From the NCBI GenBank assembly GCA_015064895.1, contig SVRI01000012.1:1146-65145 (forward strand): a stretch of 64,000 bases of DNA, in the 5' to 3' direction. The DNA comes from Oscillospiraceae bacterium. GTDB lineage: Bacteria; Bacillota; Clostridia; Oscillospirales; CAG-382. Below the pieces are notes generated by a model that ran no database searches, had not been told where the DNA came from, and saw nothing but the letters and a program-made list of their open reading frames with translations. The number at the start of each line of letters is the position of its first letter. Position 1 is the first letter of the stretch. Positions 21,206 to 47,609 of this stretch are shown in pieces. A program made the position numbers and the translations under genes.

Positions 21206-21291
21206 AATATCACCTCAAAATAATATATGCAAATAGGCTCCTGTTATGAAAATGCCCTCGGAAAACCGAGGGCAAATTTTGCATAAACTAA

Positions 21292-21382: not shown

Positions 21383-21409
21383 AATTCACTGTTTAAAATC
21401 CTGTGGATT

Positions 21410-24147: not shown

Positions 24148-27100
24148 ATGAGAAGACTTTTAAGTGTAGTGCTCGCAATCGTGATGGTTATGTCAACTGT
24201 TGCTTTTGCAATACCTTCTGCGGTAACAAATACCGATAACGCAGAAGAACAGACAAATGCACCGGAGGAAAATGCTGTGGCAGAACTTACAGCGGCAAAG
24301 GCACTCAAACGAGGCATTAACATGCTCACAGGAAACAAGAATGCCTTTGACGGCGAAACCGAAACCGATATTTCCTGGGCAACAGCAGGTTCTATCCCAG
24401 CTTCCGACTTGGCAGTTGTGGATGACCCCACAGGTGAACGCGGCGGCAAGGTGTTCCAGGCAACACAGGCAGTAAACGACAAGGGTTACCCCAACTTCAA
24501 CATGCAGTTCGGCGGCGACCTTGATACAGATATCGGTCATACATATCTTTATGTAGCATTCGACTATCAGAAGTATGTACCCGAAACCGAAGGCTATATT
24601 GAAAACACTGCTTTCTGGGTTCTTAACTCTACTGCTGCAGCAGGTACATTTGCTGTTTTCAATCCTGCTCTCGGTGCAAATGAAGGCTGGAAGCATTTTG
24701 GAAAGATAATTGATTACACAATAAATACCACCGGCGACAGTATGTATGATACAACCACAAACGAGTATTATACAGATCAGGATCTCAATAAGTCGATGGT
24801 TTTCCAGTCGGGTAAGAATACAGCCAATACTGTTCCCGCATATCTTCTCTTCGACGATATTATCGTTGCTCCTGCTTACAAGGTTACATATTATAATAAG
24901 GCAGGCACAGATGTTGTAAAAACAGACTATATTGCAGTTGACGAAGAAGGCAACCTTCTTGAAGCATTCGAGCCCGCTGCTATCATTTCCGGTTCTACCG
25001 TTTACAGCGACTGGTCTCTTACACAGGGCGGTTCCGTAAAGAGTTATATTACACTTGATGAGTCTTTCAACGAAGATATTGTTCTTTATGCAACAACCGA
25101 AGGAGATGCTACAGCTACTGCAAAGGTAGTTCTTGATAACAAGCTTACCAAGGCAGGCGATACAGCAGTTGCAACAGCGAAGTTCCTCGGCGACCCCGTA
25201 TTTGACCCCTTCTCAATCACATGGTCTTCAGCTCATCCCGCTGTTGCAGAAGTAAGCTATGATAAGGCTACCGGTATTGCAACGGTTACAGCAAAGTCGG
25301 AAGGTTATGCAGATCTTACATTCTCAAGCGGCTCTCTTACATTTACTGACAGAATCTATGTAACAGACGATCCTATCGTAGCTTCAAGCGTTACAAGCGG
25401 TGCTGAAATTTCCGAATTTGCAGGCGTTGACCTTGAGCTCTATGAATATGTAACCGTAAATGTTACAAACACATCTTCTTCTGCTAAGAAGGTAACTGTT
25501 TCTCTTGACAGTGCCGAACTCGATAACGAAATCGGTTTCAACTTCGCAGAATGGGATATTGAAGTTCCTGCGAATGTTACAAACTACGATGTATACGTTG
25601 ACCTTACAAATGAAGCATTGTGGAAAGATGATTCCGAAAGCATTACAGTAACAGCACAGAGCGGTGTAACAATCAACAATGCAAAGCTCTGGCCTGTTCT
25701 CACACCCGAGATTGAACTTGGACTTACATCTCCTACAGACCTCATTTCCACAGCAAACGGTACAGTTACCGTAACAGGTGCATTTACTTGCGACCTTGAA
25801 GGTGTATATGACGAAACATTCACACTTACTGTTGATACAGATCCTACAATCGCTTCCTATACAATCAGCGGTAATAACGTTACAGTTAAGGCGGGTACAG
25901 CAGGTACATGCGTTGTAACCGTAACAGCTACAAGTAACGAAGATCCTTCAGTTAAAGCAGTAAAGAAGATTCTCGTAGATATCGGTAACACTTCCGGCTA
26001 CGGACTTACACTTGATGCCGATTCCACAAGCATCAACGGCGATGCAATTGCAACAATTACTCCTATTGTTCACTCTGCATCAGGAAGTGTTGATAACTTC
26101 AGCATCGAATATGCAATGTCTGCTGACGGCTATGCGTCTCTTCTCAAGAACGGCGACGGCACAGCAACAGTTACTCCTCTTAAGGACGGCTCCGTAACAA
26201 TTACAGCAACAGCTGTTGTCGGCGGCAATACTCTTACAGATGACATCACACTTACACTTACAAATATTCCCAGAAGAACCGTAGCATACGACTTAAAGCT
26301 TATGCTTATCGGTAACTCCTATCTTGAACACGGCTATCTCGCAACAGCCGATAAGACTCTCTATAACGGTTATATGGATAAGACCGATGTTCCCCGTGGT
26401 ATGGCGGCAACTTCTCCTGAACTCGACTACTATGCACAGCTTTGCAAGAGACTCGAAGCAGGCTTTGAAGGCTCATTCACATCCAAAAAGCAGGGCGGTG
26501 CCGTAATCGAACAGGCTTGGAAGAAGGGTCTTGCTTCAGGTACACCTTCCGATCTTACAGGCTGGGATCCCGATGTTTCCCTTGCAGCAATGCAGAATGC
26601 ATGGGCACCCATTGTAGATTATATGGATAAGGAACAGCCTAACCTTATTACAATTCAGCTTGCTGAAAACGCAGCTCATGCTAAAGAAGAATCCGCAACA
26701 TTCTTCTATGATGAAGTATGCAAGATGATTGATGCTCACAGACCCGAAAACTCCGTAGTAGTTATCATTTCTCCTATGGGTACACAGGTATCCTCCAATG
26801 TACAGCAGGTAATCGCCGCAAAGTACGGATTCTACTGGGCAGATAACACATGGATCGGTGACGAAAACGGCTGGGGTGCAAGCAATCCCTACCTTGCATT
26901 CGGACACTATCCCGATTATACGAACTCCGCTGTGGTTGAATTCCGTACACACCCCGGTAACCTCGGTATGGAAGAAATTGCAAAGAGTGCATACGCAATC
27001 TTCGAAGAAAAGATTCCTACAGCTATTAAGCCTACTCTCGTAACACTTCCCGACAGCTTCACAATCGAAGGTGCTGACACAATTACAGCAAAGGGCGGTA

Positions 27101-28938
27101 CAGCACAGCTTACAGCTGTTCCGAATCCTGCATCTGCAACAGATAAGGTTTACTGGTCTGTAAACAACGAAAACCTTGCAACAGTTGATGAAAACGGTCT
27201 TGTTACAGCACTGCTCAACGGTACGGTAACAGTTACTGCAAAGTCTATCTACGACGAAGAAGTTGTTGCAACAAAGACAATTACAATTTCCGGTCAGATA
27301 CCTCATTACACTCTTACATATGCTTCCGGCGTTGCAGGTGGCGAAACGGTAAATAACATTCCCGCAGCTTTCGCATATGCGGCTGGCGAATATGTATTCC
27401 CCGCACTTGTTGCAGTTCCTGAAAGAAACGGTTATAAGTTCCTCGGCTGGTCTGAAACTGAAGGCGGCGAAGTAGTAAAGAGCGTTAACATGACTTCTGC
27501 TAAGACAGTATATGCAATTTGGGAACTCGCTGACAGCTGGTCGTTCGATAACGACGGTGACCTTGAAGGTATCGGCGTTGCAGGCTTTAACACTAAGGTT
27601 GAAGGCGGCGTAATGTCAACTATTTCCTATGACGGTCAGGCAGTCGGCTTCTCCGATGCAACACTTATACTTGATGCGTCTAAGTACAGTGCATTCAAGA
27701 CAAACATCTCAATGTCTACCGTAAACAGCGGCGACTACTTCACTCTTACAATCACAACAGATGAAGGCAACAAGACATTTACCGCTGAAACACTTGTAGG
27801 TGCAAATGACTACACATTTGACCTTTCTGAAGTAACAGGCACAATCACAGGCTTCAGCCTCTACACAAGCAACAGCGCAGACGGTGTTGGCATGACAGTT
27901 GATTATGCAAAGTTTGTTGAAGCTGCATCAAGAGGCGAAGAAGTATATGATAGCCTTGACGTTAATTCCTACACAACACTCGATGCAAGCAACAATCTTA
28001 TCACTGTAAATAATCTTACAGTAAACAGCACACTCGTTCTCGAACCTGGTTCTTACGTATTTGAAAACGTAAGCGGCACAGGTAAGATTGAGGCATCCGT
28101 TAACGCAAATGTGCTCATAAAGAATGGCACAAAGCCAACAGGCTACGTTGAAATCGAAATCGGTGCTAAGGCTGAAAATGCTATCAGATACGCAGAAGTT
28201 GACGGTGCTCAGTACAGAATTTACGAAGAAGAAGGCAACACCAAGTACGGTATGATTCTCGGTGATGAAAGCAAGCTTCTTGAAATTACATCTGTTGGTT
28301 CTGAAACAGCTTCCAAGTACTATCTTGTAAAGGACGGTGCAGGCTCTGAAATTTCTATGGGCACATATGCTAATAAGGCAGATGAAAAGACCATCAGAAA
28401 TGATGAAGTGACAAGTAACAGGACTGGTGCAAGATTTGCAGCGAGCGTTTCTAAGAACTTTGAAAACGTATCCGGTATCACAATCACAGAACACGGCTTT
28501 ATTGTTGGTCTTGAAGAAACAATCAATGCCAACGGCGGTCAGCTCAACTTTGACCTCAAGAATGAAGCTTTTAACGACGGCAGAGGCGCTTATGTTTCCG
28601 GAAAAGCATTTGTTAGAGATGAGTATAACATGATAGCAAATCATGACTCTTATGCTTCTGACAGTGCATATGTATTTGCAGCTATCCTTGTTGGTGCACC
28701 TGAAGCTCAGTACAACAAGAGACTTGTTATCAAGACATATACAAAGCTTACAATTAACGAAGAAGAATTTGTTGTATACGGTCAGCCCATGGTAGAAAGC
28801 TTCTACTCACTTGCTGCAAAGCTTAAGGGCGATACAACTCTTCCCGAAAACGTTCAGACTATTATCAACGGAATCGTTGAAAATGGCGAAAACTTCGGCA
28901 ATGAAGAGGCACTTCCCGGTGACGACCTCTGGAGCTAA
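24148..28938 (+). CDS. giant secreted mosaic protein A (1596 aa): CBM-like domain, Big_2 repeats, SGNH-like esterase, Flg_new repeats, shared C-terminal module
   Basis: The ATG at 24148 follows AAAGGAG; the ORF-track start at 24067 is an upstream extension. Signal peptide MRRLLSVVLAIVMVMSTVAFA. SGNH-like blocks LIGNSY / QLAENA / FRTHPGNLG. Flg_new signature PERNGYKFLGWSETEGG...VYAIW. Several Big_2-like segments (e.g. LTAVPNPASATDKVYWSVNNENLATVDENGLVTA). Paralogous to 29134-34512. Confidence 0.85.
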   Translation: MRRLLSVVLAIVMVMSTVAFAIPSAVTNTDNAEEQTNAPEENAVAELTAAKALKRGINMLTGNKNAFDGETETDISWATAGSIPASDLAVVDDPTGERGGKVFQATQAVNDKGYPNFNMQFGGDLDTDIGHTYLYVAFDYQKYVPETEGYIENTAFWVLNSTAAAGTFAVFNPALGANEGWKHFGKIIDYTINTTGDSMYDTTTNEYYTDQDLNKSMVFQSGKNTANTVPAYLLFDDIIVAPAYKVTYYNKAGTDVVKTDYIAVDEEGNLLEAFEPAAIISGSTVYSDWSLTQGGSVKSYITLDESFNEDIVLYATTEGDATATAKVVLDNKLTKAGDTAVATAKFLGDPVFDPFSITWSSAHPAVAEVSYDKATGIATVTAKSEGYADLTFSSGSLTFTDRIYVTDDPIVASSVTSGAEISEFAGVDLELYEYVTVNVTNTSSSAKKVTVSLDSAELDNEIGFNFAEWDIEVPANVTNYDVYVDLTNEALWKDDSESITVTAQSGVTINNAKLWPVLTPEIELGLTSPTDLISTANGTVTVTGAFTCDLEGVYDETFTLTVDTDPTIASYTISGNNVTVKAGTAGTCVVTVTATSNEDPSVKAVKKILVDIGNTSGYGLTLDADSTSINGDAIATITPIVHSASGSVDNFSIEYAMSADGYASLLKNGDGTATVTPLKDGSVTITATAVVGGNTLTDDITLTLTNIPRRTVAYDLKLMLIGNSYLEHGYLATADKTLYNGYMDKTDVPRGMAATSPELDYYAQLCKRLEAGFEGSFTSKKQGGAVIEQAWKKGLASGTPSDLTGWDPDVSLAAMQNAWAPIVDYMDKEQPNLITIQLAENAAHAKEESATFFYDEVCKMIDAHRPENSVVVIISPMGTQVSSNVQQVIAAKYGFYWADNTWIGDENGWGASNPYLAFGHYPDYTNSAVVEFRTHPGNLGMEEIAKSAYAIFEEKIPTAIKPTLVTLPDSFTIEGADTITAKGGTAQLTAVPNPASATDKVYWSVNNENLATVDENGLVTALLNGTVTVTAKSIYDEEVVATKTITISGQIPHYTLTYASGVAGGETVNNIPAAFAYAAGEYVFPALVAVPERNGYKFLGWSETEGGEVVKSVNMTSAKTVYAIWELADSWSFDNDGDLEGIGVAGFNTKVEGGVMSTISYDGQAVGFSDATLILDASKYSAFKTNISMSTVNSGDYFTLTITTDEGNKTFTAETLVGANDYTFDLSEVTGTITGFSLYTSNSADGVGMTVDYAKFVEAASRGEEVYDSLDVNSYTTLDASNNLITVNNLTVNSTLVLEPGSYVFENVSGTGKIEASVNANVLIKNGTKPTGYVEIEIGAKAENAIRYAEVDGAQYRIYEEEGNTKYGMILGDESKLLEITSVGSETASKYYLVKDGAGSEISMGTYANKADEKTIRNDEVTSNRTGARFAASVSKNFENVSGITITEHGFIVGLEETINANGGQLNFDLKNEAFNDGRGAYVSGKAFVRDEYNMIANHDSYASDSAYVFAAILVGAPEAQYNKRLVIKTYTKLTINEEEFVVYGQPMVESFYSLAAKLKGDTTLPENVQTIINGIVENGENFGNEEALPGDDLWS

Positions 28939-28965
28939 CCCAAAACAATTAAAACACAAAGTTTT

Positions 28966-28994
28966 GCACACCCGATTTTCGGGTGTGCTTTTTT
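28966..28994 (+). terminator. intrinsic terminator
   Basis: GCACACCCGattttCGGGTGTGC followed by TTTTTT. Confidence 0.8.
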
Positions 28995-29133
28995 GTGCAT
29001 AGTAAATAAAAATGTATACGGAAATTCTAAGGTTTAAAACAGGATAAATGGCGAAAAATACATAAAAAGTTAATAATTTTCGCCTATAATATAAACGTAT
29101 ATTTTTATTTAAATTCAGAAGGAGAAGAATTTT

Positions 29134-32100
29134 ATGAAAAAGCTTTTAAGTGTACTCCTTGCACTTGTCATAGTGTTTTCAACCGTGGCTTTTGCAATTC
29201 CTTCTGTTGTTACCGTTAAGGATACAGCAGAGGAAACAGTTGTAGTACAAGACGAAAATCCTGCCGACCTTATGGGTATAGGCTATAAGGTTCAGCGTGG
29301 TATTAACATGCTTACAGGCACAAAGGATGCCCTCACAGGTGAAAACTATGCCATCTACGGCGGCATTTTCAATACTGCTTACGCTGATACAAAAATAAGT
29401 GCAAGCGTTAACCCTAAGGACAGCACAGATAAGGTTTTTGTATTTAATATTCCGAGTCCTGCGGCACAAGGCAGAGGCGACTATGTAAACTTCAGCGTTC
29501 AGTTCGGACCGTACTCTAACGGTGCATGGGCAAATCTTAGCAACTATATGTCCCACAAATATATGTATGTTTCTTTTGATGTAATGAAGGAAGTTGTTGA
29601 TGCTTCTGCAGGATATACTGCAGGGGATTCCTTCTGGATTATGAACTCTAATGTTACAAGCGGCAACAACTCATTCCTTACTCCCAAGAATGTTACTCCC
29701 ACAGCGGGCTGGCAGCATTTCAGTAAGGTTTGTAACCTCATGCTTACAAATCAGGAAGAAGGTACATCTACAGGCAGAGAAGACCCTAACCAGATTATCT
29801 TCCATATGTATGTAGACAATGCAAATAAAACAGATGTAAACTTCTATTTCGATAATATGATTATCGCTCCTGCTTATAAGGTTACATATTATAATAAGGC
29901 AGGTGATACGGTTGTTAAGGAAGATTATATTGCTCAGGATGCAAGCGGAAATCTTCTTACATCCTTCATGCCTCAGGGTATAGTTGCAGGCAGAGCTTCC
30001 TATAGCGGATGGTCTGCTGCTAAGGGCGGTACACCCATTACTGAAGCGATTGTACTTGATGAAAATAATAATTCCGATATCGTTCTCTATGCTACACAGG
30101 AATTGGACGCATTCGACAATGCAACACTTTCTTCTGATGCAAAGCTCGATAAGCTCGGTGCAACAGCAACTGTTACAGCTAATCTTGTTGGTAATCCCGA
30201 TGTTAATGCAGACTATGTAACATGGTCTTCAAGCAATGAATCGGCTATTACCGTTGTAAATAACAAGGACGGTAAGACAGCAACACTTAAGGCTGTTGGT
30301 GAAGGTAAATCCACAATATCATATACTTATCAGTATGCAACGGGTTCATATGCGACCGTTACACAGGAATTTGAAGTGGCAGTTGGTGCAAAGACAGAAT
30401 TCTCAGGTCTTAACACAGACGTTTACGAATATATCACATTGAATGTGACAAACAGCGGTGCCGAAAGCAATGTAACTGTTTTCTATTCAACAGATAAAGA
30501 TGTAGGCACAAAGGAAATTAAAGTTCCGGCAAACGTTACAGGCTACGATGTATACGCAGATATGACTAAGGAATCTGCATGGAACGGCACAATTTCAAAC
30601 ATTTCCGTTTCCGAAGGCAGCGGCGTAACCGTTAATAACACAAAGCTTTGGGCAACTCTCAACACAGACCTTGCTCTTAAGTTCAATACAGAATCCACAT
30701 TTATCGGTACTCCCAATTCTTCACTCAATATCGCAGCTTTGGTTGACTGCGACCTTGAAGGCGTATACGATAAGACATATACATGGACAACAAATATTAC
30801 AAATAATTGTGCTGTTGTTACAGAACAGGCTGACGGCTCACTTACAATCTCGGCAGGTGAAAATGCAGACGGCTTTGTAACGGTTACGGCTACAAGTAAC
30901 GATACAAGTAAAAACGTTTCAATCACAAGAAGAATATTCGTAAAGACAGGTGTTGATGACGGCTCTAAGGCCATTGCTTATACATGGAACTTCGACGATA
31001 CAGCCGGCACAAAGAACTGGTATAACGGCGGCGGACACCACGCACAGTCCAAGGTTGAAAACGGCACCCTTACTCTTGTAAGAACAGCTGCTAAGCTTTC
31101 GGGTGCTTCTTCAACAAGCCTTGTTACAGTATCAAGTACAACAGGCGGTTATTCTCTTACTGCCAAATCATCGGGTTCCTATGCGGAATCGGGACAGAAT
31201 TCTGTAGAGTTCTCCATGACAGATTATCCCTATTTCTGTTTCAAGGCAAAGACAACAAATCCCGGAACATATAACATTAAGGGTTATTTCACGGCGGACG
31301 GTGTTTCTCATGCAGAGAGCAGAGCAAGGACAGCTGATTTTGAGTTAACAGACGAGTATCAGCTCTTTGTATTTGATCTTACTTCTATAGCAAATTCCTC
31401 GGAGCTTAAGGGTAAGAATTACGGCGGTATTATGCTTGTTAACCAGACAAATTCCGTAATTGATGCTTCCACAATTAATTCTTCAAATGTAGCATCTTCT
31501 CCTCTTACATATTCTTCATATAATCCCGTTATTATTGACGAAGTGTTCTTTGCCAACTATGATGCTTCAAACACTCTTGAAGTAGGTCTTGACCTCACTG
31601 CAGACAAGTATTCTATTAACGGTGAAGGCACATTTACACTTACTTCCGAGTTATTCTCCAATAAGGCAATCACAAACACAAATGTTGTTTACTCTGCTGA
31701 CAGCAATATCGTAACAGTATTCAACAACGGTGACGGAACAGCAACCGTAACACCCGTCGGAAACGGTACAGTTACAATCACGGCAAAGTCTGTACTTGAT
31801 GAATCGGCTACAGATTCTGTTACACTCACAATAAGCGGTGTTCAGACAAAGCTCGTAGCATATGACCTTTCCATGGTGTCTCTCGGTAACTCCTACCTCT
31901 GCCATAACTATGCAGAGTGGTTTGACTTGTCAAAATACAACGGTTGGATTGATGAAACAGACGTTGTCCGCGGTATGGCTGCTTCCGAGCCCGACCTCGA
32001 CTATTATGGCAGAATCCAGTATTATATCAATAATAATTTCAACTGCTCGCTTAAGGCAAACAGATTTGCAAATAACCTTATCGAAATTGCCTGGAAGAAG

Positions 32101-34512: not shown

Positions 34513-34531
34513 TTAAATAACTGAGTTTTTT

Positions 34532-34561
34532 GTCCGCATCGAAAGATGCGGACGTTTTTTT
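34532..34561 (+). terminator. intrinsic terminator
   Basis: GTCCGCATCgaaaGATGCGGAC followed by GTTTTTTT. Confidence 0.8.
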
Positions 34562-34569
34562 GTTTTAGC

Positions 34570-34598
34570 TTTACAAAATGATTACTGAGTGATATAAT
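34570..34598 (+). promoter_or_regulatory. sigma-A promoter with extended -10
   Basis: TTTACA, 17-nt spacer ending in TGa, then TATAAT. It is 21 nt upstream of the ATG at 34620. Confidence 0.55.
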
Positions 34599-34619
34599 GA
34601 AAAAAAGAAAGGGGATATA

Positions 34620-37600
34620 ATGATGAAGAAAATAGTTGCTCTTATGCTTGCTTTGTTGACGGCGTTGACAATGGCTTCATGTAAAAAAGAGGAAAAGAAG
34701 CCTCAGGCACCTGCACCTGTAGCTGATGAGGTTAAGGAAGAACAGGTTGAGCAGAAGGTTGAGATTAAAAACATTATTTTTCTCATACCCGACGGCGCAG
34801 GATACGGCTCGTTCGACTTTGCAAATGATGTAAAAGCTGAAGGAGGCTTCAACTCCCAAAAATATCCCAATAAAACATATACAAGTTTTAGTGCCATGTC
34901 TATGAAAAAATACCTTGCAGGCAGTATTATGACTCTCAACTGCAACGGAGACATCACAGACTCTGCTGCAGCGGGTACGGCACTGTCTTCGGGATATAAA
35001 ACAATAAACCAATATGTCGGTGTTGATAAAACCGGCAAACCCCGTGCTACAATCCTTGAGGCTGCACAGACAAAAGGTATGGCAACAGGTCTTGTAGCTA
35101 CATATGAGTGGATGCATGCAACACCTGCTGCGTTTTCTTCACATGTCATAAATCGAAACGATTATAAGAATATTTATGAGCAGATTGAAAACCAAAATAT
35201 AGATGTTGTGCTCGGATCAGGTTACGGTGCAGTTTCTTCGTATGCAACAATAGATAACGCAGTCGAAAACGGATATACTGTCGTAACAACAAGAGAAGAC
35301 CTTGAAAGTGTTAAGCCCGGCGACAGAATTTGGGGAAACTGTACAAATAACAGTTCTCCCTATGATATTAATCTTACCGCCGAACAGCCCACTCTTGCAC
35401 AGATGACAAAGGCGGCAATAACGGCACTTTCGGACGATGAAGACGGCTTTTTCCTTATGGTTGAAGGCTCAAAGGTGGATACCGGCGGACATGCAAATGA
35501 TGCAGTTGTTGTGGCAAGTGAATATCTTGCATTTGATGCTGCATTCAAGGTGGCGGTTGATTTTGCCAAAAAAAGAAATGATACAGTTGTAATAGCGGCA
35601 CCCGACCACGATACAGGCGGGCTCAAATACTCGGAAATTGAAGACATTATGTCTGTTGTGAATGAAGTACGCTCAGGTACCGATTCGGATGTTATAAAAT
35701 GGGAGTCAGGAAGCCATACTGCTCAGAATGTCGGTGTATGGATTTATGTTCCCGAAGGAACACCCTTTATTGAAGGGCTCAATTCGACTGTGGGCGACAC
35801 ACCCGAAACAAGAGAAAACTATGTTGTGGAAAATTCCACATTATCACCGTATCTTGCATCACTTTTGGGTGTCAATCTTGATGAGGTCTCAAAAGAACTT
35901 TTTGTTGATGTAACTGATATAGGCAGATATTCTTCAGATTCGGGCAAATTCTCGTTTAATAACGGTAATAAGTATGTATACCGTAATTCCGATGAATACT
36001 ATAAAGACGGAGAGAAAATAAGCACGAACGGCAAGGTTGCCGTGGAAGTTGCGGGAAGATTCTATGTTCCTTCCGAAATGATAGATGAAGATGACTGGAA
36101 TTATCTTTCCGAAGAAGGTTCGTCTGAAATGGGCGGTTCGGGTACTGCAGATGACCCGTTTATAATTGATGAGGCATGGGACTTTATTGAATTTACCGAA
36201 CGTGTTGCCGGAGGAGAAACCTATGAAGGAAAGTATTTTCTCCAGGTGAGTGACATTGATTTGACAAAACGAACAGATTTCAAGGGTGCAGGTGCCGAAT
36301 GTCAGTTTGCAGGTATGTATAACGGTAACGGTAAAACAATTTCTGTAGACCTTGTTGCTGAAAACGATGAGTGTGTATTCCCCGAAATTGCAGGTACTTT
36401 AATAAATGTGCATGTCGACGGTAAAATCAAGTCTGAAAATGCGTCAGGGAATGCTGTTACAGGCGGTATTGCAAGAAGCGTTGCGGCTTCGGGTGAAATA
36501 CTTAACTGTTCGTCCGATGTTGAAATTTCAGGTTGCAATGTATACGGTATTGTCGGCACAAATAATGGCTATGTTGGTATGTGCTATTTTGGCGGAACTC
36601 TTGAAGGAACAGGCGATGTTTTTGTAATATCGTCAAATTCTGACGGCGGTGTCATTGAAAAATGCTACTATTCCGATTCTTTGAGTGCTTACGGGCAGGA
36701 TGGAGCAGAAGCGGTAACGACTGAGCTTGCACAGACAACTGTGGAAATACTTAATGGTGGAAGAACTGCACTTGTAGCAGCATCAGGTGAAGATAAAATG
36801 TGTTTGTGGAGAGTCTCGGAAGAAGACGGAATGCCTGAAATGTATATGCCGGCACCCAGGGTTACCGATGTTGTTGTAACACCTTCCTCGGCAACCGTAA
36901 ATAGGGGCGACGGACTTCAGCTTTCGGCTGTTGTACAGGGTGAATACGGACCGTCACAACAGGTAATCTGGTCATTGGAATCCTCGGCAGGCGGTTCTGA
37001 ATCTGTTGTGTATGAAGACGGATATCTTTATGTGGACGTAAATGAATCGGCTCAAAGCCTGACTGTTATGGCAAAATCCGCAACCGACGGAAGTGTAACA
37101 GGTATTTGTACCGTTACTGTAGGAGAAACGGTGCTTTCAGAAGCCGACGGTACAAGAGCAAGACCTTACCTTATAAATAACGAACAGGATTTCCTTGCTT
37201 TTACAAACGAAATAATTTCGGGAGACAGCAAGTCAGGTCTTTATTACAGACAGACAAAGGACCTTGATATGTCGGCTGTTCCCGAGTATAACGGCATTCA
37301 AAGTACCCACTCCTTCAACGGTATTTATGACGGAAAAGGTTATACAATTAAAGTTGCGATTGAATCCGAAAGCGATAACAGTCTGTTCGGCTCGTGCAGA
37401 GGTATGATTATGAATGTAAGAACCGAAGGTACAGTTGTAGGAACGGCAAATCCCGCCGGTATATGCAGAGCAGTCAGGGATAACGGAATTGTTGTCAATT
37501 GCATATCCGACTGTGATATCACGGGCGGAACGGAAGCATCGGGTATTGTACGATCCAATTATCACCTTGTGGCAAATACCTTCTTTACGGGTAAATTGTC

Positions 37601-37850
37601 TTCACCGGCACCGCATCTTACATGCTGTGTTCAGGAAAATGCCGAGGTTTATAATAACTGTGCAATTGAAACAGCCTCATATATAAACGGAACGGAGACT
37701 GTTTATTCAGAGGATGATTATTCGCCGGAAACTGTTGTTGCAAAGATGAATCAGGGCAGGGTAAAGGCGAGTATGATGGCAGGTGTACCTGTTTCGTCAC
37801 TTAATGAGTGGAATGCTGATGGAAACGGAAAGCTTGATTTTGTAAAATAA
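34620..37850 (+). CDS. lipoprotein C (1076 aa): alkaline phosphatase domain fused to two GLUG-type beta-helix modules and a Big_2 domain
   Basis: Lipobox-like LTMASC. PhoA-type catalytic set: LIPDGAGYG, TDSAAAGTA (Ser nucleophile), EGSKVDTGGH (E-x4-D-x3-H), APDHDTGG and GSHT. GLUG-type module openers are DDPFIIDEAWDFIEFT...YFLQVSDIDL...FAGMYNGNGKTI and ARPYLINNEQDFLAFT...YRQTKDLDM...FNGIYDGKGYTI. Big_2 segment is VVVTPSSATVNRGDGLQLSAVV. Confidence 0.85.
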   Translation: MMKKIVALMLALLTALTMASCKKEEKKPQAPAPVADEVKEEQVEQKVEIKNIIFLIPDGAGYGSFDFANDVKAEGGFNSQKYPNKTYTSFSAMSMKKYLAGSIMTLNCNGDITDSAAAGTALSSGYKTINQYVGVDKTGKPRATILEAAQTKGMATGLVATYEWMHATPAAFSSHVINRNDYKNIYEQIENQNIDVVLGSGYGAVSSYATIDNAVENGYTVVTTREDLESVKPGDRIWGNCTNNSSPYDINLTAEQPTLAQMTKAAITALSDDEDGFFLMVEGSKVDTGGHANDAVVVASEYLAFDAAFKVAVDFAKKRNDTVVIAAPDHDTGGLKYSEIEDIMSVVNEVRSGTDSDVIKWESGSHTAQNVGVWIYVPEGTPFIEGLNSTVGDTPETRENYVVENSTLSPYLASLLGVNLDEVSKELFVDVTDIGRYSSDSGKFSFNNGNKYVYRNSDEYYKDGEKISTNGKVAVEVAGRFYVPSEMIDEDDWNYLSEEGSSEMGGSGTADDPFIIDEAWDFIEFTERVAGGETYEGKYFLQVSDIDLTKRTDFKGAGAECQFAGMYNGNGKTISVDLVAENDECVFPEIAGTLINVHVDGKIKSENASGNAVTGGIARSVAASGEILNCSSDVEISGCNVYGIVGTNNGYVGMCYFGGTLEGTGDVFVISSNSDGGVIEKCYYSDSLSAYGQDGAEAVTTELAQTTVEILNGGRTALVAASGEDKMCLWRVSEEDGMPEMYMPAPRVTDVVVTPSSATVNRGDGLQLSAVVQGEYGPSQQVIWSLESSAGGSESVVYEDGYLYVDVNESAQSLTVMAKSATDGSVTGICTVTVGETVLSEADGTRARPYLINNEQDFLAFTNEIISGDSKSGLYYRQTKDLDMSAVPEYNGIQSTHSFNGIYDGKGYTIKVAIESESDNSLFGSCRGMIMNVRTEGTVVGTANPAGICRAVRDNGIVVNCISDCDITGGTEASGIVRSNYHLVANTFFTGKLSSPAPHLTCCVQENAEVYNNCAIETASYINGTETVYSEDDYSPETVVAKMNQGRVKASMMAGVPVSSLNEWNADGNGKLDFVK

Positions 37851-37853
37851 ATA

Positions 37854-37886
37854 AAATCCCGCACGCTGAGGTGCGGGATTTTTTTG
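37854..37886 (+). terminator. intrinsic terminator
   Basis: AAATCCCGCACgctgagGTGCGGGATTT followed by a T-run. Confidence 0.8.
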
Positions 37887-37944
37887 TATAAATTTCAAGA
37901 GCATAAGAACCATAAAAGTGCTAAAAAAATATGAAAAATGGATA

Positions 37945-37973
37945 TTTACATATTGTGCAAATTGTGATACAAT
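37945..37973 (+). promoter_or_regulatory. sigma-A promoter with extended -10
   Basis: TTTACA, 17-nt spacer ending in TGa, then TACAAT. Same architecture as the promoter at 34570. Confidence 0.5.
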
Positions 37974-38029
37974 GATAGTAATTAAAATTGTGACTTTTTA
38001 ACAAAGTTCATAAAAAAGGAGAATGCTTT

Positions 38030-41000
38030 ATGAAAACCAGAGCTCTCAAAATAGTATCATTTCTTCTGGTAATCTGTATGATTTGCATGGGCATGCCCAT
38101 GACGGCTTTTGCGGTACCTTCTGCTGTAACTGTTGTTGAATCAGCACAGGAAGTGACGGCAAACGATTCCGAAGAAATTGCTACCGGAGAAGCTGCGGCA
38201 GAGACGACACCGCAGATCAAAAACATTATTTACCTCATTCCCGACGGTGCCGGATACGGTTCTTTGGATTTTTCCAATGACGTAAAGCAGGCAGGCGGTT
38301 TTGATGATGCGAAATTCCCCTATAAGACACCTGTAGACGATAGTCCCATGACACTTTTTGACTATCACGCAGGCTCTATGGTTACGCTCAATATTTATAA
38401 TGCCATGACAGACTCGGCTGCTGCCGGCACTGCTCTTTCGACGGGTTATAGGACAGTCAATAACTATCTCGGTCTTGACAGAAGAAAGATGCCCCATGCA
38501 AACCTTACTGAAGCTGCTCAGTCGGTAGGTAAGGCGACGGGTCTTGTTTCTACATATGAATGGCCTCATGCAACACCTGCTTCCTTTGCAGCTCATGCAA
38601 TTCAGAGAACAGACTATGCTGATTTCTACCGTCAGATTGAAAACAAGAATCTTCAGGTAGTTCTCGGTAATGGCTACGGCTCTGTTGCGGCCTACGGTGC
38701 TACAATGCAGACGGCTATTGATAACGGTTATACAATCGTTAAGACAAAGGCAGAGATGGCGGCTGTACAGCCCGGTGATAAAATCTGGGGTAATGTATGC
38801 GAAACAAGCTTTGACTTTGATATTTATAACGGTGCGGATACATCCACTCTTGCCGAAATGACACAGGCGGCGATCACCGCACTTTCCGGTGATGAAGACG
38901 GCTTCTTCCTTATGGTAGAAGGTTCAAAAGTTGATACAGGCGGACACTCCAACAACACAGCACAGATGTCCTCCGACTATATTGCATTTGATGAAGCTTT
39001 CAAGGTTGCGGTAGAATTTGCAAAGTCTAGAACTGATACGGTTGTAGTTGCAGTTCCCGACCACGATACAGGCGGTCTTTACTATGATACACTTGTTGCT
39101 TCCAGTAATCTTGCTACAGCAGTCGCCGAAACACAGCAGGGTAACAACTCTACTCTTGTTACTTGGGAATCCGGCTCTCATACAACACAGGAAGTTCCTT
39201 TCTGGTGCTACTATCCCGAAGGAATTACAGGTATTGAAGGTGCGGCAGAACCCGGTCGTGACTACTATGTTGATGAAAACGGCAACAAGAACCCTGTAAG
39301 AACAGAAAACGTAATTGATAACACGGATATTGCTCCCTGGTGTGCTTCTTTAATGGGCGTTGACCTTGATGAGCTTACAAATAACCTTTTCGTAAATGTT
39401 ACCGATATCGGTCTTTACGATGCGGCAACACAGAAGTTCACCTTTAATAACGGCGATAAGTACGCATATAAGGATCAGGCTGTTTACTATGAAAACGGCG
39501 TAAAGAAAGATATGTTCGGTCAGATGATTGTTATTGAGGAAACAGTTTATGTTCCCCGTGAAATCATCGACGAAGAAGACTGGAACTATGTAACGGAAGA
39601 CTTTGACGGCGTTACGGGTGCAGGTACTGAATCCGACCCATATGTTATCGACGATGCTTGGGACTTTATGGAGTTTACCAATAATGTTGTCGCCGGTGAC
39701 AGCTATGAAGGCAAGTATATCATTCAGGGTGCCGATATTGACCTTTCCAATAAGAACACATACACAGGTATGGGTACAGCTACCTTCAAGGGTAACTATG
39801 ACGGTAGAGGTTATACATTGAATGTTGCAATTTCCGCAACAGGAAGTAATGCCGCAACAGTCTTTGGCGTAAATGAAGGAAGAATTATGAATGTCGGTAT
39901 AACCGGTTCTCTCAGCGCTGAAAATGCACACGCTGCATCTTTTGTTTACAGAAACGGCTACGGAACAATACTTAACTGTTATTCCCTTGCCAATGTTACA
40001 ACTTCCGGCGACGGATATTCTAATGGTCTTATTTTCCAGAACTATGCTTCCATAAATAACTGCTATTTCGGCGGTACTGCAAAGACTGCCTCCACAAGCT
40101 GTAACAGTGAGGGCGAGTTCCTTAATGTATACTATGTTGAAACAGCAGGTTCTCAGATAAATAACGGCACAGGCGTTTCGGCAGAGGTTGCAAAGACAAC
40201 ACTTGCAGATACACTTAATTCCAAGCTTGATGAGCTTATTTCCACCTACGGTCTCGGTGAAGATGCTCTTAATAAGTGGACATATATTGGCGGTATTGAC
40301 TATCCTGTTCTCAAGGTAAAGACACCTGAAGTAACGGGTATTACGGTAACTCCAACAGCGGCAACCGTAAAACGCGGCGAATCCACAACACTCAAACCTA
40401 CCGTTCTCGGTATCTACAATCCTCCGCAGGATGTTGTATGGAATGTAAGCCCCGCAGCCACAAGTAAGGAGACAAAGTTCTATGAAGACGGCTTCTTCAA
40501 GATTGGTGCTGATGAAACTGTTTCTCAGTTCACAATTCAGGTTAAGGCTGCATACGGCGGTGCATATACAGCAACTGCTGTTGTAACTGTTGACCTTGCA
40601 TCTGACCCCGTAGTTAAGGAAGACGGTTCAAGAACTCATCCTTACCTTATTGAAACAGAAGAAGACTTTATCGAATTTACAGAAAATGTAAACAGCGGTA
40701 ACCAGTACAGTAATAAATACTTAAAGCAGACAAGAGACCTTGACCTTGACGGCTATGACGAATATAAGGGCAGATACACAGAAACCTACTTTACAGGTAT
40801 TTACGACGGAGACGGTCATACAATCAATGTAAATATTTATGTTGAACGTGATGAAGATAAGCAGTATGATGATATTTGTCTCTTTGGTTATATTTCAAGT
40901 GCAAGAATTTTGAATCTTGGTGTAACAGGTTCAATCAAGGCACCGGGTTACGTTTCAACATTTGCAAGAAATATGTCTTCGGCTTCACTTATTGCAAACT

Positions 41001-42463
41001 GCTGGAGTACAGTTCATGTAGAATCAATAGCCAAGGGCTTCGGCACACATCCCGGTAACGATGCTTCCGGCTTTGTACGTTCACCCTACGGCGGTGCATT
41101 TGTAAACAGCTACTTTGCAGGTGAGCTTATTTCTCCCGGCGGAACATCTCATCCTCTCGGCGGTTCGGGTTCGGATTATAAGGCAGTTTACTATAACTGT
41201 GCATATCTCGGACAGGTTTCTTTTGATGATGAAGAACAGGCGGAAATTACAGAAGAAGAACTCGAAGGTCTTGCATATAAGTTCAATGCAGGCATAGCAG
41301 AGTCGGCAAAGGTTGCAACAAGCTCCAACTCCAAGGGTTATGTTTATGTTCCTGCAATGTTCCGTGAATGGTTCGATGAAATCGGCGGTCCAAGACACGG
41401 TGCAAGAGATGATGCGGCACGTTTCAATAAAGAATTCAGCGGGGATAAATCCTTTGAAGAAGTTGTAATCGGTTCTGATGTTGAAATCAAGGCAAACGGC
41501 AATGTGATTTCAATCGACAGCCTTACTGTTAAGGAAGACTCGGCTCTCCACCTTGGACAGGGTACATATGTACTCGGAGATGTTACAGGTACAGTAACAG
41601 CATCTCCAAATGCAAACGTACTTGTTACAGGCGCAAATAAGCCCGAGGGGTATGTTGAACTTGATATCGGTACAGCTTCAGGTTCAAGATATGCCGAGGT
41701 TAACGGCTATCAGTACGATATCGTTGAAAACAGCGGTAAGTACGGTGTGATTACCGACAAGAATATGCTTATTCAGGTTGTTGAAAAGCCTGAGGCTTCA
41801 CTCTTTGCCGAAGAAGAATATGAAACAACAGGTACAAAGTACTATTATGTTGATGCTGAAAACGGCACATCCACTGAGCTTACATCACTTGATGGCTATA
41901 TGGCAAACTACAACAAGTATTCTATAAGAATGCCCGACCAAAGATTGAGTAATACGGCACTTCGTTTCAGAGCTCAGATTTCAAAGACATCAAAAGATGA
42001 AACTGACGAGTATGTAATTGATGAATACGGTTATATTATTACTCTTGAAGAAAAGCTCAGTAATAACGACTATTCACAGCTCAACTTTGACTTTACAATT
42101 CCCGGTAAGACAGCATACGTATACGGTGCTGCATATGTAAAGGGAAGCGTAGATAAAGTGTATGGACAAGATGATGAAGTAGCTGAGTTTGCAGCTGCAT
42201 TCCATGGTATTCCTACATTGGCATACGGTAAGAGAATTGTCGCAAAGACATATACAAAGGTAACTGTAAACGGCGAACAGTTTGTACTTTACGGTGAACC
42301 TATGGTAACAAGTGCTTATTCTGTTGCCAAGGAACTCGTAGACAGCGGCTCTGTTTCCGAAAGCGATGAAACTTATGGCTGCATCAAAGATATTATTGAT
42401 GCAACTACAGATGAAGGCTTCGGTAATGAAGCGGGCGGCGATACAGGAGACCTTTGGAACTGA
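38030..42463 (+). CDS. giant secreted mosaic protein D (1477 aa): alkaline phosphatase, two GLUG-type modules, Big_2, and the C-terminal modules shared with A and B
   Basis: RBS AAAGGAG. Signal peptide ending MTAFA. Phosphatase motifs LIPDGAGYG, TDSAAAGTA, EGSKVDTGGH, VPDHDTGG and GSHT. GLUG-type openers SDPYVIDDAWDFMEFT... and THPYLIETEEDFIEFT.... The C-terminal roughly 330 aa is collinear with the tails of A and B. Confidence 0.85.
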   Translation: MKTRALKIVSFLLVICMICMGMPMTAFAVPSAVTVVESAQEVTANDSEEIATGEAAAETTPQIKNIIYLIPDGAGYGSLDFSNDVKQAGGFDDAKFPYKTPVDDSPMTLFDYHAGSMVTLNIYNAMTDSAAAGTALSTGYRTVNNYLGLDRRKMPHANLTEAAQSVGKATGLVSTYEWPHATPASFAAHAIQRTDYADFYRQIENKNLQVVLGNGYGSVAAYGATMQTAIDNGYTIVKTKAEMAAVQPGDKIWGNVCETSFDFDIYNGADTSTLAEMTQAAITALSGDEDGFFLMVEGSKVDTGGHSNNTAQMSSDYIAFDEAFKVAVEFAKSRTDTVVVAVPDHDTGGLYYDTLVASSNLATAVAETQQGNNSTLVTWESGSHTTQEVPFWCYYPEGITGIEGAAEPGRDYYVDENGNKNPVRTENVIDNTDIAPWCASLMGVDLDELTNNLFVNVTDIGLYDAATQKFTFNNGDKYAYKDQAVYYENGVKKDMFGQMIVIEETVYVPREIIDEEDWNYVTEDFDGVTGAGTESDPYVIDDAWDFMEFTNNVVAGDSYEGKYIIQGADIDLSNKNTYTGMGTATFKGNYDGRGYTLNVAISATGSNAATVFGVNEGRIMNVGITGSLSAENAHAASFVYRNGYGTILNCYSLANVTTSGDGYSNGLIFQNYASINNCYFGGTAKTASTSCNSEGEFLNVYYVETAGSQINNGTGVSAEVAKTTLADTLNSKLDELISTYGLGEDALNKWTYIGGIDYPVLKVKTPEVTGITVTPTAATVKRGESTTLKPTVLGIYNPPQDVVWNVSPAATSKETKFYEDGFFKIGADETVSQFTIQVKAAYGGAYTATAVVTVDLASDPVVKEDGSRTHPYLIETEEDFIEFTENVNSGNQYSNKYLKQTRDLDLDGYDEYKGRYTETYFTGIYDGDGHTINVNIYVERDEDKQYDDICLFGYISSARILNLGVTGSIKAPGYVSTFARNMSSASLIANCWSTVHVESIAKGFGTHPGNDASGFVRSPYGGAFVNSYFAGELISPGGTSHPLGGSGSDYKAVYYNCAYLGQVSFDDEEQAEITEEELEGLAYKFNAGIAESAKVATSSNSKGYVYVPAMFREWFDEIGGPRHGARDDAARFNKEFSGDKSFEEVVIGSDVEIKANGNVISIDSLTVKEDSALHLGQGTYVLGDVTGTVTASPNANVLVTGANKPEGYVELDIGTASGSRYAEVNGYQYDIVENSGKYGVITDKNMLIQVVEKPEASLFAEEEYETTGTKYYYVDAENGTSTELTSLDGYMANYNKYSIRMPDQRLSNTALRFRAQISKTSKDETDEYVIDEYGYIITLEEKLSNNDYSQLNFDFTIPGKTAYVYGAAYVKGSVDKVYGQDDEVAEFAAAFHGIPTLAYGKRIVAKTYTKVTVNGEQFVLYGEPMVTSAYSVAKELVDSGSVSESDETYGCIKDIIDATTDEGFGNEAGGDTGDLWN

Positions 42464-42483
42464 TATAGTCAGAATTAAAATTT

Positions 42484-42516
42484 TCCGCACTCACACGGTG
42501 GGTGCGGAGTTTTTTT
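42484..42516 (+). terminator. intrinsic terminator
   Basis: TCCGCAC...GTGCGGA stem followed by GTTTTTTT. Confidence 0.75.
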
Positions 42517-42633: not shown

Positions 42634-45600
42634 ATGAATAACGGTTTAAAGCCGTCAAAGGTAACAGTAAACATTGAAACAATGCCGTATTTTTCGGCAT
42701 CAATAGCGGATATGCGCATATCACCCGTAATAAGGTTGGTACTGGGCACGCCGGAGGCTGCAAAAAGCGGCAGACTTGAAATCAGTATAGTTGGTAAATG
42801 CAGGGATGTTGAATTTATACGCCGTGCAGATTTTGTCAAGGAAAATTTTAATACAGAGTCTTATAATTTAAAGAATACTCTTTCCTGTAATATCGATTTT
42901 GACTTTGACAGCTTTGAATATGACAATGCTTTTCTTAACAGCCTTGAAGAAGAAACAATGGCTGAAATCTATGTTCTCGTAAACTATTGCGGAACAGAAT
43001 ATGTTACCAAATCCCATATATCCCTTTTGCCTGCCGATACATGGCTCGGACTTGACGGTGAGCCCTCCGTTATTGCTTCTTTTGTAAAAGAAGATGAAAC
43101 TGTATGCGGCATATGTGACTCCTTGTGTGAAGATGAAAAAATCAGCTATAGCGTAAATTCCAAAAAGACCATAACAGCAGCAATCAAAGAGCTTTATAAA
43201 AGACTCAAAAATTGTAATATTATTTATACGCGTCCTGTCGGCTATGCTGCCAATGTCAAGCAGCAGATAAGAAGTGCAGATGTGATTTTCGGTGGCAGCA
43301 GCGTGCTTGCCACACCCCTTGAAATTGCAACCGTGTTTTCTTCATGCGCAAGAAAAATCGGTTTCGACACCTCACTTTTGTTTGTCAGAGGAAAAAAAGG
43401 TGAAATCTCGGTGCTTTGCGGCATTTACTTGGTAAAGAGCCCTGTAAATGTTCCTGTTTATGAAGATGCAGAAAGAATTAAGGCTATGCTTGACGCAGGT
43501 GACATGCTTGTTGTTGACCCGTCTGTTTTTGCTGCAGCACAGAACACGTCTCTTGTAATGGCGCTTGAACAGGCAGCAGAGTATTTTACAAAGAATCTCA
43601 GCAGCCTTGTATGCATGGTTGATATAGAATGTGCTAAAAGAAGCACCGGCGAAGCCGCTTATGACGAATTGGCATCACTTCCCGTAAAAAACGCCATGGC
43701 AAGAGTATACTCGTCTCTTGTGTCTGCACCCGTGATGCAGGTGCTTTCAGGTAAAAAGCGTGAAGAAATAGAAGAGATTCCGCTTTTGCTGGCTGATTTT
43801 GATTCGGTATTCAGAAACAATAATGACAGATTCAAACTTTTGCCGCTTGATTTTAATGTTGACCTTACCGATTTTGCGGCGATTGATAAAGATTTTTCTT
43901 CCATACTTACAATGTCATCACCCAAGGCGGGACAGCATTTCAGTCAAAATGAACTTGTAAGAATAAGAGAAAGATTTTCAAGACTCAAGGAAAAGATTAC
44001 CCGTGACGGTGAAATTACCACATCCTATTCCGAAGAGACGCTTTACAGATACGCGTCTGCCATGACCTTTGGCAAAAATAAAAGAGAACCTTATTTTGCC
44101 TTCGGATATGTAAAAATAACCGATAAGCTTACTGAAAGTGTAAGCTTTGCTCCTATTTGCCTTGTCAGGGCAAACCTTGAGTATGAAAACGGTAACTTCT
44201 ATGTAAATCAGATTGGTAACCCCATTGTCAATAAGGTGTTTATAAGAAATGCATTAAAGGATTCTGCACTTGGCTATGATTCCTTTATGAAATCTCTAAT
44301 GCCAACCGATAAAACAGAAATATTCGACATGTTTGAAAATATCCGTGTTGCACTTATGGAAACGGACGACAGACATGTTTATGAAATAGTAAGGGAAGCA
44401 CATATCGTAAATTTAGAAATTGATGACTATGTGCTCTGGTCAAATCTTGCACTTCTCAGAAAGAAGATGTCGGGCTCTGAAAATGTGTCCCGTGTGTTTG
44501 AGGATAAATTTGCTCAAGATGAGCAACTTGACCTTTCATATTCACCGTCAATGCCTTTGTATTCTCAGGCAATGAAGGCGGTAGTCAATGAAACAAGCAT
44601 GGTTGTTGAGGGTGCGTTTACTGCCGAAAAAGAAAATGTGCTTGTTGCACAGGCAGCAAAGAATATATTTGCGGGAAAGAGCACACTTGTTGTCACCGAT
44701 GACATGGAAATGTCGGAATATGTTTACGGCTTGCTTTGCGAAAAGAACTTTTCTGATGTTGCATTTGTGCTTGATGAAAGCGGAAAAGCGGAAGGTGCCG
44801 TAAAGAAAATTGCAGATAATATTGAAAAGTATAATAAGGAAGAAGATAACGGCATTGCTTTTGTAAATCCTGAGCTTTTGGAAGCAAATAAGGTTCTTCT
44901 TGATTATACAGACCGTATAAACAGAAAGCATAGCATGGGTATGTCGCTCAAGGAGGCGGAAATAGCATATCTTTCTGCAAGTGCAGGTACTGTTGAAAAC
45001 GATGATATTCCCATTGATAAAAAGATTTTCGAGTATGCCGATGAAAGCAAGCTTGATAACATATTCGAAAGGGTAGGAGAGCTTATAACAATAGCGGGAA
45101 ATCTCTGTAAAAAGAGTGGACTTCCCACACATACACCCCTTAAGAACCATCCTCTTTTCAATACAAATCCCCGTGATGATATTGATGAAGAAGTAAAGGC
45201 TCAAATCAGAACTGCAATAGAAAACACACTTCCCGTGCTTTCCGAATACAGAGATGTATTCCTTGATGTAAATGAAATACTCGGCTTTGATGAAAGAGAC
45301 CTTGATTCCTTCTATAAGCTGGAAAAACTCAATGATTTGTATAAACTGGTTCTCACTGCAAGAGATATTGACATACCCGAAAAGTTTGTTGAAAGCGATA
45401 TTGCAGATTTCTCAAAGAGTAAGCGTTTTGAAACAGAAAATAAAAAGCGTATGGAAGCAATCGAGTTTAAGCTCAATTTCTTCAGCCATGAAATTTTTGA
45501 AGATGTTGAAACACTTCTTCGAGGAGATGTTTATGACGAGGAAGAAGAAAAGGGCTTCCTCAAGAAGTTTATGCTTAAGAAAAACAGTCATGAAACGCTT

Positions 45601-47589: not shown

Positions 47590-47609
47590 CAGTGGGAGGA
47601 AATGGCGTT

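Follow-up and report, generated by a model that had tools for sequence, protein, structure and literature searches.

A 64,000-nucleotide window on contig SVRI01000012.1 of an Oscillospiraceae bacterium contains an array of giant genes, here designated A, B, C and D, and a related gene, E, that lies apart from this row. The locus encodes Sec-exported modular proteins, extracellular or at the cell surface, whose heads are carried on Big_2/Ig-like and Flg_new spacers. Proteins A, B, D and E have both a leader motif behind the signal peptide and a C-terminal tail, while C has neither, and within the small clade to which the locus belongs the same leader and tail also frame numerous further secreted proteins whose heads are unrelated. 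Modular multigene families of surface proteins and mosaic surface genes are already well known; the cassette formed by this tail and leader is undescribed and lineage-restricted. With a slightly better than even chance, it is a targeting or retention cassette particular to the lineage and shared by a set of Sec-exported modular enzymes and binding proteins. This reading is favoured because of the distribution of the cassette, its position, its pattern of conservation and the contrast between C and D.

The leader and tail would either retain the enzymes at the envelope or link them to a docking partner, and may substitute for SLH, LPXTG or dockerin modules. The array proteins would be used to scavenge nutrients (phosphate, esters) and for binding at the cell surface. 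Little is known about how enzymes are displayed on the surface of gut Clostridia of the Oscillospiraceae/Eubacteriales type, which are abundant and for the most part uncultured. The unannotated C-terminal family and the N-terminal motif together mark at least about 10 proteins per genome as a lineage-specific secretome, and surface proteins in metagenome-assembled genomes (MAGs) could be predicted from them. If the cassette is indeed a targeting device, it would extend the Gram-positive repertoire by a new module for anchoring or sorting.

Genes A (24148..28938, 1596 residues), B (29134..34512, 1792 residues), C (34620..37850, 1076 residues) and D (38030..42463, 1477 residues) are giant open reading frames (ORFs) that follow one another on the + strand. 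Gene E (50344 or 50353..52026, +, 557–560 residues) is separate from this row, and the five genes sum to 19,518 nucleotides. The start of A that gives 1596 residues, rather than 1623 from a longer start, agrees with public gene calls on identical metagenome contigs, which encode the same array proteins. In BLASTP comparisons the modules common to A–E are shared far above chance. An earlier reading of the DNA from its letters alone (the sequence-only reading) had described four co-oriented giant genes plus E, about 19.5 kb in all, as secreted mosaics built from one shared kit, and the ORFs, the signal peptides and the modules found by BLASTP bear this out. The locus belongs to an uncultured lineage of mammalian-gut Clostridia whose MAGs are labelled Eubacteriales or Oscillospiraceae. 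The closest genome is MAG JAZQIW01, labelled Eubacteriales bacterium, in which gene D has 80% amino acid identity. The array is flanked by ordinary chromosomal genes (PheT, NFACT, a Mur ligase, glutamate dehydrogenase and GH95).

The C-terminal tail

The tail comprises about 255–335 residues of β-sandwiches and a helical hairpin, and usually ends in ..GDDL[FWY]. It occupies residues 1262–1596 of A (27931..28935, +; end ..LPGDDLWS), 1459–1792 of B (33508..34509, +) and 1141–1477 of D (41450..42460, +). The AlphaFold2 (AF2) model of the tail, with a predicted local distance difference test (pLDDT) score of 75, shows a short β unit, two β-sandwiches and two helices, with the last 15 or so residues disordered; the tail of D has β-sandwiches, two helices and a disordered end (..GDTGDLWN) in its AF2 model. 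A hidden Markov model (HMM) of the tail matches A, B, D and E with E values of 1e-49 to 1e-96 and does not match C. The tail has no sequence match in Pfam, NCBIfam or the PDB, and Foldseek comparison of its model with the PDB and BFVD returned generic tandem Ig-like structures only, with query-normalised TM-scores of at most 0.25. Matches of the first tail profile to leucine-rich repeat (LRR) proteins were rejected, as they were due to contaminating LRR_5 head columns from three members; giant LRR proteins were the top matches of that profile, and with the clean tail HMM they yielded no additional tails. The tail was also considered as a phage-borne or endolysin wall-binding module, an idea that was dropped because neither INPHARED (tblastn) nor IMG/VR gave a match.

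The tail is always C-terminal, and the heads that precede it differ: LRR_5, Flg_new, GDSL, Polysacc_deac_1, alkaline phosphatase, GLUG and unknown ones. A scan with a tail pattern over one genome for each of 185,579 species gave 20 loci, which belong to 8 MAGs, all of them Clostridia/Eubacteriales/Oscillospiraceae from mammalian guts; in MAG JAZQIW01, at least 8 loci that match the tail lie on contigs of their own. A search for homologous proteins with the tail gave 7–8 matches and missed known members, so its counts are no measure of rarity. Judged by eye, about three-quarters of 34 tails end in ..G-[DEGS]-L-[FWY] near the last residues, often as IG[IL]PGDDL[YFW], and a stricter terminal pattern holds for 14 of the 34. 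Invariant positions of the tail are kept across proteins with unrelated heads.

Since the tail consists of β-sandwich (Ig-like) domains, as many binding modules do, it might be no anchor at all and form instead the distal functional end of these proteins, which would bind a ligand, a glycan or the host, or serve oligomerisation, the proteins being released or held N-terminally. This account, possible though unlikely, is in keeping with the fast evolution of the tail and its mosaicism between orthologues, features often found in exposed binding tips. It also agrees with the layout of C, in which an N-terminal lipid anchor precedes heads arranged as in D, so that by analogy the C-terminus of D would point outward. 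However, the tail is found on unrelated enzymes and binders, some of which have binding domains already, and no CBM (carbohydrate-binding module) or adhesin domain was found that it resembles. Its conserved core residues and disordered terminal peptide suit a common partner better than they suit diverse ligands.

The N-terminal leader motif

In the tail-bearing proteins the motif AxA↓xPSAVTVxD/E lies directly after the signal-peptidase site (arrow), and an acidic disordered linker comes after it. The motif reads AFA↓IPSAVTNTD in A, AFA↓VPSAVTVVE in D and ALA↓LPSAVVTTD in E; B has it as well, and it is absent in C. About 190 ORFs of the window and of related loci were compared, and 21 of them combine a signal peptide with the motif, all in tail-bearing genes. 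Nineteen of the 21 carry the tail themselves, and the other two are one split gene and one cut gene. Secreted proteins without the tail (the SLH protein, lipoproteins and others) are mostly without the motif. The conserved N-terminal and C-terminal peptides are both predicted to be disordered, which would fit the expectation for recognition peptides. In one related locus, an ORF of 239 residues with signal peptide and leader motif (L021:1153-1869) overlaps a downstream, P0045-like tail ORF that has no signal peptide (L021:1803-3587); the pair is apparently either one gene split by a frameshift or a product of misassembly.

The motif, together with a tail that has an acidic-Leu-aromatic end, could constitute a two-ended sorting or docking signature of an undescribed surface-display pathway of this lineage of gut Clostridia, which would have a role like that of dockerin-cohesin or of the C-terminal domain in type IX secretion and would imply a partner or processing factor. 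The rapid evolution of the tail would then reflect co-evolution with this partner; such a pathway is distinctly unlikely. A further proposal takes leader and tail as a two-part sorting signal for dedicated machinery, either cleaved, like the C-terminal domain (CTD) of the type IX secretion system (T9SS), or dockerin-like and destined for a scaffold. The many copies per genome, the diverse cargo, the strictly terminal position and the unstructured conserved peptides at both ends speak for it, and the fast co-evolving divergence recalls species-specific dockerin-cohesin pairs. It is nevertheless quite improbable, as no candidate machinery or scaffold gene occurs in the window or beside the other members, no NCBIfam sorting-domain model matches, and the tail is far larger than known sorting signals. 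In these apparently Gram-positive-type Clostridia with SLH proteins, moreover, Sec export alone suffices.

Export, anchors and the proposed role of the cassette

Proteins A, B, D and E have predicted signal peptides of the classical kind; the signal of C is that of a lipoprotein, with the lipobox LTMASC. None of the five proteins has a C-terminal transmembrane helix or hydrophobic segment, or an LPxTG-like motif. Searches of Pfam and NCBIfam gave no match in the array proteins for SLH, dockerin, choline-binding (CW_binding), CWB2, LysM or GW anchors, nor for sorting domains of the T9SS CTD or PEP-CTERM type, the terminal transmembrane helix also being absent. The proteins therefore lack a classical anchor, as had been stated from the sequence, and a true SLH protein is encoded elsewhere in the window (18065-18895).

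That C, the lipoprotein paralogue of D, has neither leader motif nor tail counts in favour of a targeting cassette. Several points weigh against this reading. The contrast between C and D is itself ambiguous, since the lipid anchor could replace either the leader or the tail. No known family ties the tail or the leader motif to anchoring or sorting, and the neighbours of tail-bearing genes share no partner or processing gene. About one-quarter of the tails, including those of E and of gene X in the relative L006, are without the terminal motif. The association of motif and tail is biased because the loci were sampled for having tails, and a complete secreted protein of 686 residues (L018:6778-8835, +) carries the motif VFA↓MPSQTALTAEE with no detectable tail. 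Between orthologues, tails are 52–66% identical in amino acid sequence compared with 88–95% for heads; the tail thus evolves faster, not the usual behaviour of a module that binds a conserved wall polymer. The SGNH and "CBM" assignments of heads in A and B, finally, are without statistical support.

The likeness of the leaders and tails might also reflect nothing other than descent from one ancestral gene in which the middle was exchanged and the ends were retained, so that the array would be an ordinary cluster of paralogous exoproteins whose ends have no shared function. All modules are indeed old, with about 37–47% amino acid identity between paralogues, and E, X and some other members have truncated or motif-less tails. 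Yet the invariant tail positions persist across unrelated heads, and motif and tail co-occur on very different heads. In addition, the ratio of non-synonymous to synonymous divergence (dN/dS) of the tails is 0.22–0.27, which indicates purifying selection. Descent as the sole explanation is very improbable.

Two related loci have features of their own beside tail genes. The gene at L018:6778-8835 directly follows a tail fragment of 186 residues. At L027:9472-14161, a CsaB-like pyruvyl transferase (PS_pyruv_trans), a DUF5693 protein and a MurJ-type flippase adjoin one tail-bearing GDSL gene. A wall-polymer pathway of this kind produces the ligand of SLH domains. That the cluster lies beside a tail gene may be coincidence.

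Domain architecture of A and B

Proteins A and B are related over their full length, with 42% identity over 1011 residues and 37% over 633 residues (BLASTP). The order in A is signal peptide, leader motif, β-domain, Ig-like stalk, SGNH-like α/β domain, Big_2, Flg_new, β-domain and tail. B has the same order with one additional β-rich domain of about 200 residues (residues 612–810; 30967..31563, +), which A is without. The extra domain of the B type also occurs in the A-orthologue of the relative L006.

The Big_2 and Flg_new units lie at residues 970–1123 of A (27055..27516, +) and 1162–1312 of B (32617..33069, +). Big_2 (PF02368, cutoff 22.8 bits) is above the gathering threshold once in each protein (53.6 bits in A and 45 bits in B), while the remaining Ig-like units of the array give weak Big_2 matches only (E 0.0008–0.011). 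Flg_new (PF09479, cutoff 27 bits) is above threshold in B (30.9 bits) and below it in A (22.9 bits). A Flg_new-like unit had also been proposed near the N-terminus, and it has no Pfam match; the spacer assignments accordingly hold for Big_2 in both proteins and for Flg_new in B.

The putative SGNH-like hydrolase domain spans residues 715–955 of A (26290..27012, +), with invariant GNS, G, EN and HPG, its fold class being taken from the predicted model of the homologous B. In B the predicted α/β SGNH-like domain spans residues 907–1150 (31852..32583, +), where the AF2 model of residues 1–1200 (mean pLDDT 78.5) shows strand/helix alternation. Across the 33 members of the A/B family, GNS, RGMAA, (A)EN and HPG are invariant and occur in the order of the SGNH blocks, although the spacing of the block V Asp is non-canonical. 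Pfam gave no match to an SGNH family (the best, Lipase_GDSL_2, reached E 0.12 in 1 of 11 members) and a PDB profile search gave no sequence match. An hhalign comparison with a true GDSL domain was not significant (E 0.1), though the blocks are colinear. Foldseek with the whole 1200-residue B model placed Ig-array proteins on top (the S-layer proteins SbsB/EA1/Sap, titin and complement), and since they dominate the result it provides no test of the SGNH or CBM domains. Of the SGNH-like esterase named in the sequence-only reading, what stands is thus the motifs and the predicted α/β domain, the database and structure searches giving no support; a probable SGNH-type esterase head in A and B is plausible from the motifs and the model.

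The B model also shows β-rich domains at residues 79–246 and 614–807. Neither Pfam nor PDB profiles gave a CBM match for domain 1 or for the insert/domain 2, and hhalign detects no kinship among the three β-domains of A and B. The description of these domains as CBM-like is supported by neither sequence nor fold.

Phosphatase heads of C and D

C consists of a lipoprotein signal, an alkaline phosphatase, a GLUG-like module, an Ig-like domain and a second GLUG-like module, with no tail and no leader motif. D has a signal peptide, the leader motif, an alkaline phosphatase, a first GLUG-like module (GLUG1), an Ig-like domain (40277..40564, +; weak Big_2, E 8e-4), a second GLUG-like module (GLUG2) and the tail. 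The two proteins are 43% identical over about 1020 residues in BLASTP, while the C-terminal part of D matches both A (D 1124–1477 with A 1248–1596, E 4e-42) and B (D 1139–1475 with B 1459–1792, E 2e-65). By these alignments D combines a head of the C type with a tail of the A/B type and is the chimera that had been proposed.

The alkaline phosphatase domains lie at 34764..35879 (+) in C and 38216..39349 (+) in D, and match PF00245 with 201.5 and 161.9 bits, respectively (cutoff 24.4). D resembles many alkaline phosphatases of the PDB, the best at about E 2e-31. Both proteins keep the nucleophile Ser and metal-ligand motifs intact (PDGAG, TDSAAAGTA, EGSKVDTGGH, PDHDTGG and GSHT). The alkaline phosphatase assignment made from the sequence thus holds in both, which makes C and D candidate extracellular alkaline phosphatases. 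Candidate extracellular phosphatases and esterases matter for nutrient scavenging in the gut.

GLUG-like modules and gene E

The GLUG-like modules of C lie at residues 483–725 (36066..36794, +) and 813–1076 (37056..37847, +), and those of D at 39542..40264 (+) and 40577..41404 (+). In D the first is a hyperdivergent segment and the second is 96–98% identical in amino acid sequence to its orthologues. A profile of eight GLUG-like modules matches PDB entry 3n6z_A with E 1.9e-18 (positions 16–219 with residues 41–324). Pfam Glug (PF07581, cutoff 20.5 bits) stays below threshold, with 9.7 bits (E 1.7) for the segment of D and weak matches in 4 of the 8 modules (best E 0.0057); it has none in protein E. 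The GGxxG repeats are mostly lost in the copies of C and D. Despite the subthreshold Glug scores, the naming of these modules as GLUG is upheld by the profile match, which supports the GLUG modules of C, D and E as homologues of a solved IgA1-protease-like domain.

Protein E has a signal peptide, the leader motif, a GLUG-like head with five GG[IF]xxY repeats and then only the last β-sandwich of the tail with its helices. Its head matches both GLUG modules of D in BLASTP (E 29–205 with D 849–966, E value 7e-8; E 33–205 with D 505–668, E value 1e-4) and its C-terminal part matches the tail (E 415–541 with D 1303–1441, E value 5e-10), in agreement with the order first read for it: signal peptide, GLUG module and last C-terminal module.

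Evolution of the array

Relatives share the gene order A-B-(slot)-D-F-MreB, the MreB-like gene having been seen after F in L004, and D is followed by F in L004, L022 and L024, with F 59–62% identical in amino acid sequence. The third slot is variable. C is present only in the lineage of the window, and none of the four relatives examined has it; its place in L006 is taken by gene X, which encodes 746 residues with a GLUG head and the full tail, and the slot is empty in L004/L005, L022 and L024.

Divergence also varies sharply within genes when those of the window are compared with the orthologues at L004. In D, the alkaline phosphatase is 95% identical in amino acid sequence, with a synonymous divergence (dS) of 0.21, and the Ig-like domain with GLUG2 is 96% identical (dS 0.15), compared with 48% for GLUG1 (dS 2.3) and 66% for the tail (dS 0.93). 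In A, the head is about 90% identical (dS 0.34) and the tail 52% (dS 1.42). GLUG1 of D has 46–51% amino acid identity to three orthologues, with a dS of about 2.2–2.3 against L004 and L006, while its flanks are 95–100% identical to L004 and L006 and about 80–95% to L022. Within the same segment, two of the three D orthologues are 70–92% identical to each other. Since dN/dS is 0.2–0.3 everywhere, there is no overall sign of positive selection.

The relatives thus show variation in gene content, in a third slot that holds C, X or nothing, and mosaic variation, in sharp dS contrasts, and the locus is a clear natural case of module-level recombination within giant surface-protein genes. Recombination had been placed among the paralogues. 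Its occurrence is supported by the heterogeneity of dS within genes and the variation of the third slot; its placement among the paralogues is not, as these are old, share no long near-identical DNA and yield no donor, and the chimera D is conserved. The best DNA matches between paralogues of the window have only 84–88% identity over 50–100 nucleotides, and recent gene conversion among them was rejected for want of long near-identical DNA. The chimeric architecture of D is kept in at least three other MAGs. C was rejected as the donor of the divergent GLUG1 of D, its identity of 28–50% being not above that of orthologues from other MAGs, and none of the sequences compared proved to be a donor of the divergent segments. 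The paralogues of the array are old and diversify by segment replacement, the fast parts being the leader, GLUG1 and the tail.

The neighbouring housekeeping genes (19205-22768, compared with L004:254-3781) have dS values of 0.16 for glutamate dehydrogenase, 0.55 for a flavin reductase and 1.61 for a ParA-like gene. This roughly ten-fold spread points to patchy recombination between the lineages or else to a strong codon bias of the glutamate dehydrogenase gene; with dS ranging from 0.16 to 1.6, recombination between related lineages seems common in the region generally.

Comparison with known systems

The Cwp family of Clostridioides difficile consists of secreted proteins anchored by CWB2, many of whose genes lie in one co-oriented cluster and some of which vary between strains. 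The array resembles it in joining a shared module to a variable functional part within a co-oriented cluster. However, it has no CWB2, and its shared module is an undescribed C-terminal β-sandwich tail with an N-terminal motif, which in the array is the fast-evolving part. CwpV is introduced in PMC4737114 as a conserved cell-surface protein of C. difficile.

Dockerin-bearing enzymes of Clostridia join diverse catalytic heads to one small terminal module that binds a common partner, with many copies per genome. The array proteins and their relatives likewise have varied heads with one terminal module in many copies, but the tail is 4–5 times longer than a dockerin, has no Ca-binding repeats and no dockerin match in Pfam, and no cohesin-like partner was identified. 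In the T9SS of Bacteroidota, dozens of unrelated cargo proteins have a Sec signal and a conserved β-sandwich CTD. The combination of a Sec signal with a β-sandwich C-terminal module on unrelated heads is similar here, although the phylum and the type of envelope are different, the tail comprises helices in addition to two or three domains, Pfam and NCBIfam give no CTD match and no T9SS genes were seen.

Honeybee Bifidobacterium species have tandem clusters of group-specific RCC1/Flg_new/LPxTG surface proteins that diversified after acquisition in the ancestor of the clade (PMC4449606). The present array is also a tandem set of lineage-specific proteins with Listeria-Bacteroides repeats (Flg_new), but its members are without the LPxTG sortase ends and have different head domains. 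The GLUG-like modules match PDB 3n6z, a putative immunoglobulin A1 protease, over about 200 positions, although here no protease domain accompanies them. Fibrillar adhesins are outlined in PMC8286594 and PMC9210967 as long multidomain surface proteins with a stalk, an adhesive domain and an anchor, the stalks being Ig-like, such as Big_2. The array proteins are similarly long and multidomain with Ig-like stalk units; in contrast to fibrillar adhesins, they have enzymatic heads (phosphatase, SGNH-like) in mid-chain, no long identical stalk repeats and no recognised anchor.

Transcription signals and neighbouring genes

Strong terminator-like hairpins with T-runs follow A (28966..28988), B (34531..34554), C (37853..37882, bidirectional) and D (42483..42509), all on the + strand. 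The two best promoter-like sites of the region precede C (34570..34598, +; TTTACA-17-TATAAT, TG-extended, 11/12) and D (37945..37973, +; a consensus match). As consensus matches only, these sites agree with the proposal that each of A–D has its own terminator and that C and D have their own promoters.

Three genes that the sequence-only reading had not mentioned sit between D and E. Gene F (42634..47589, +) encodes a cytoplasmic protein of 1651 residues with no signal peptide, an MreB-like gene (47592..48632, +) starts 3 nucleotides after it, and iPGM occupies 48670..50331. F has no Pfam, PADLOC or PDB match; its only match is a weak N-terminal one to NCBIfam antiphage_ProA, with 135 bits against a cutoff of 1500. 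A defence function for F was rejected, given the missing PADLOC match, the ProA score far under its cutoff and a literature search that gave no result.

Directly upstream of A, gene U (23105-23887, +) encodes a single-pass membrane protein of 260 residues with no family match. It is also upstream of A in L004 and L006, where the proteins are 42–47% identical between them (dS 1.65), and U might be functionally linked to the array. Just downstream of E, an HTH_3 regulator gene (52104-52598, +) overlaps by 4 nucleotides a lipoprotein-like gene of 473 residues with a weak PD40 repeat (52595-54016, +), and the two look like a coupled pair. Further along, a GH95 fucosidase-type glycoside hydrolase (55538-58492, −) has an AraC-type regulator nearby (58984-59799), and both are consistent with a glycan-foraging gut organism.

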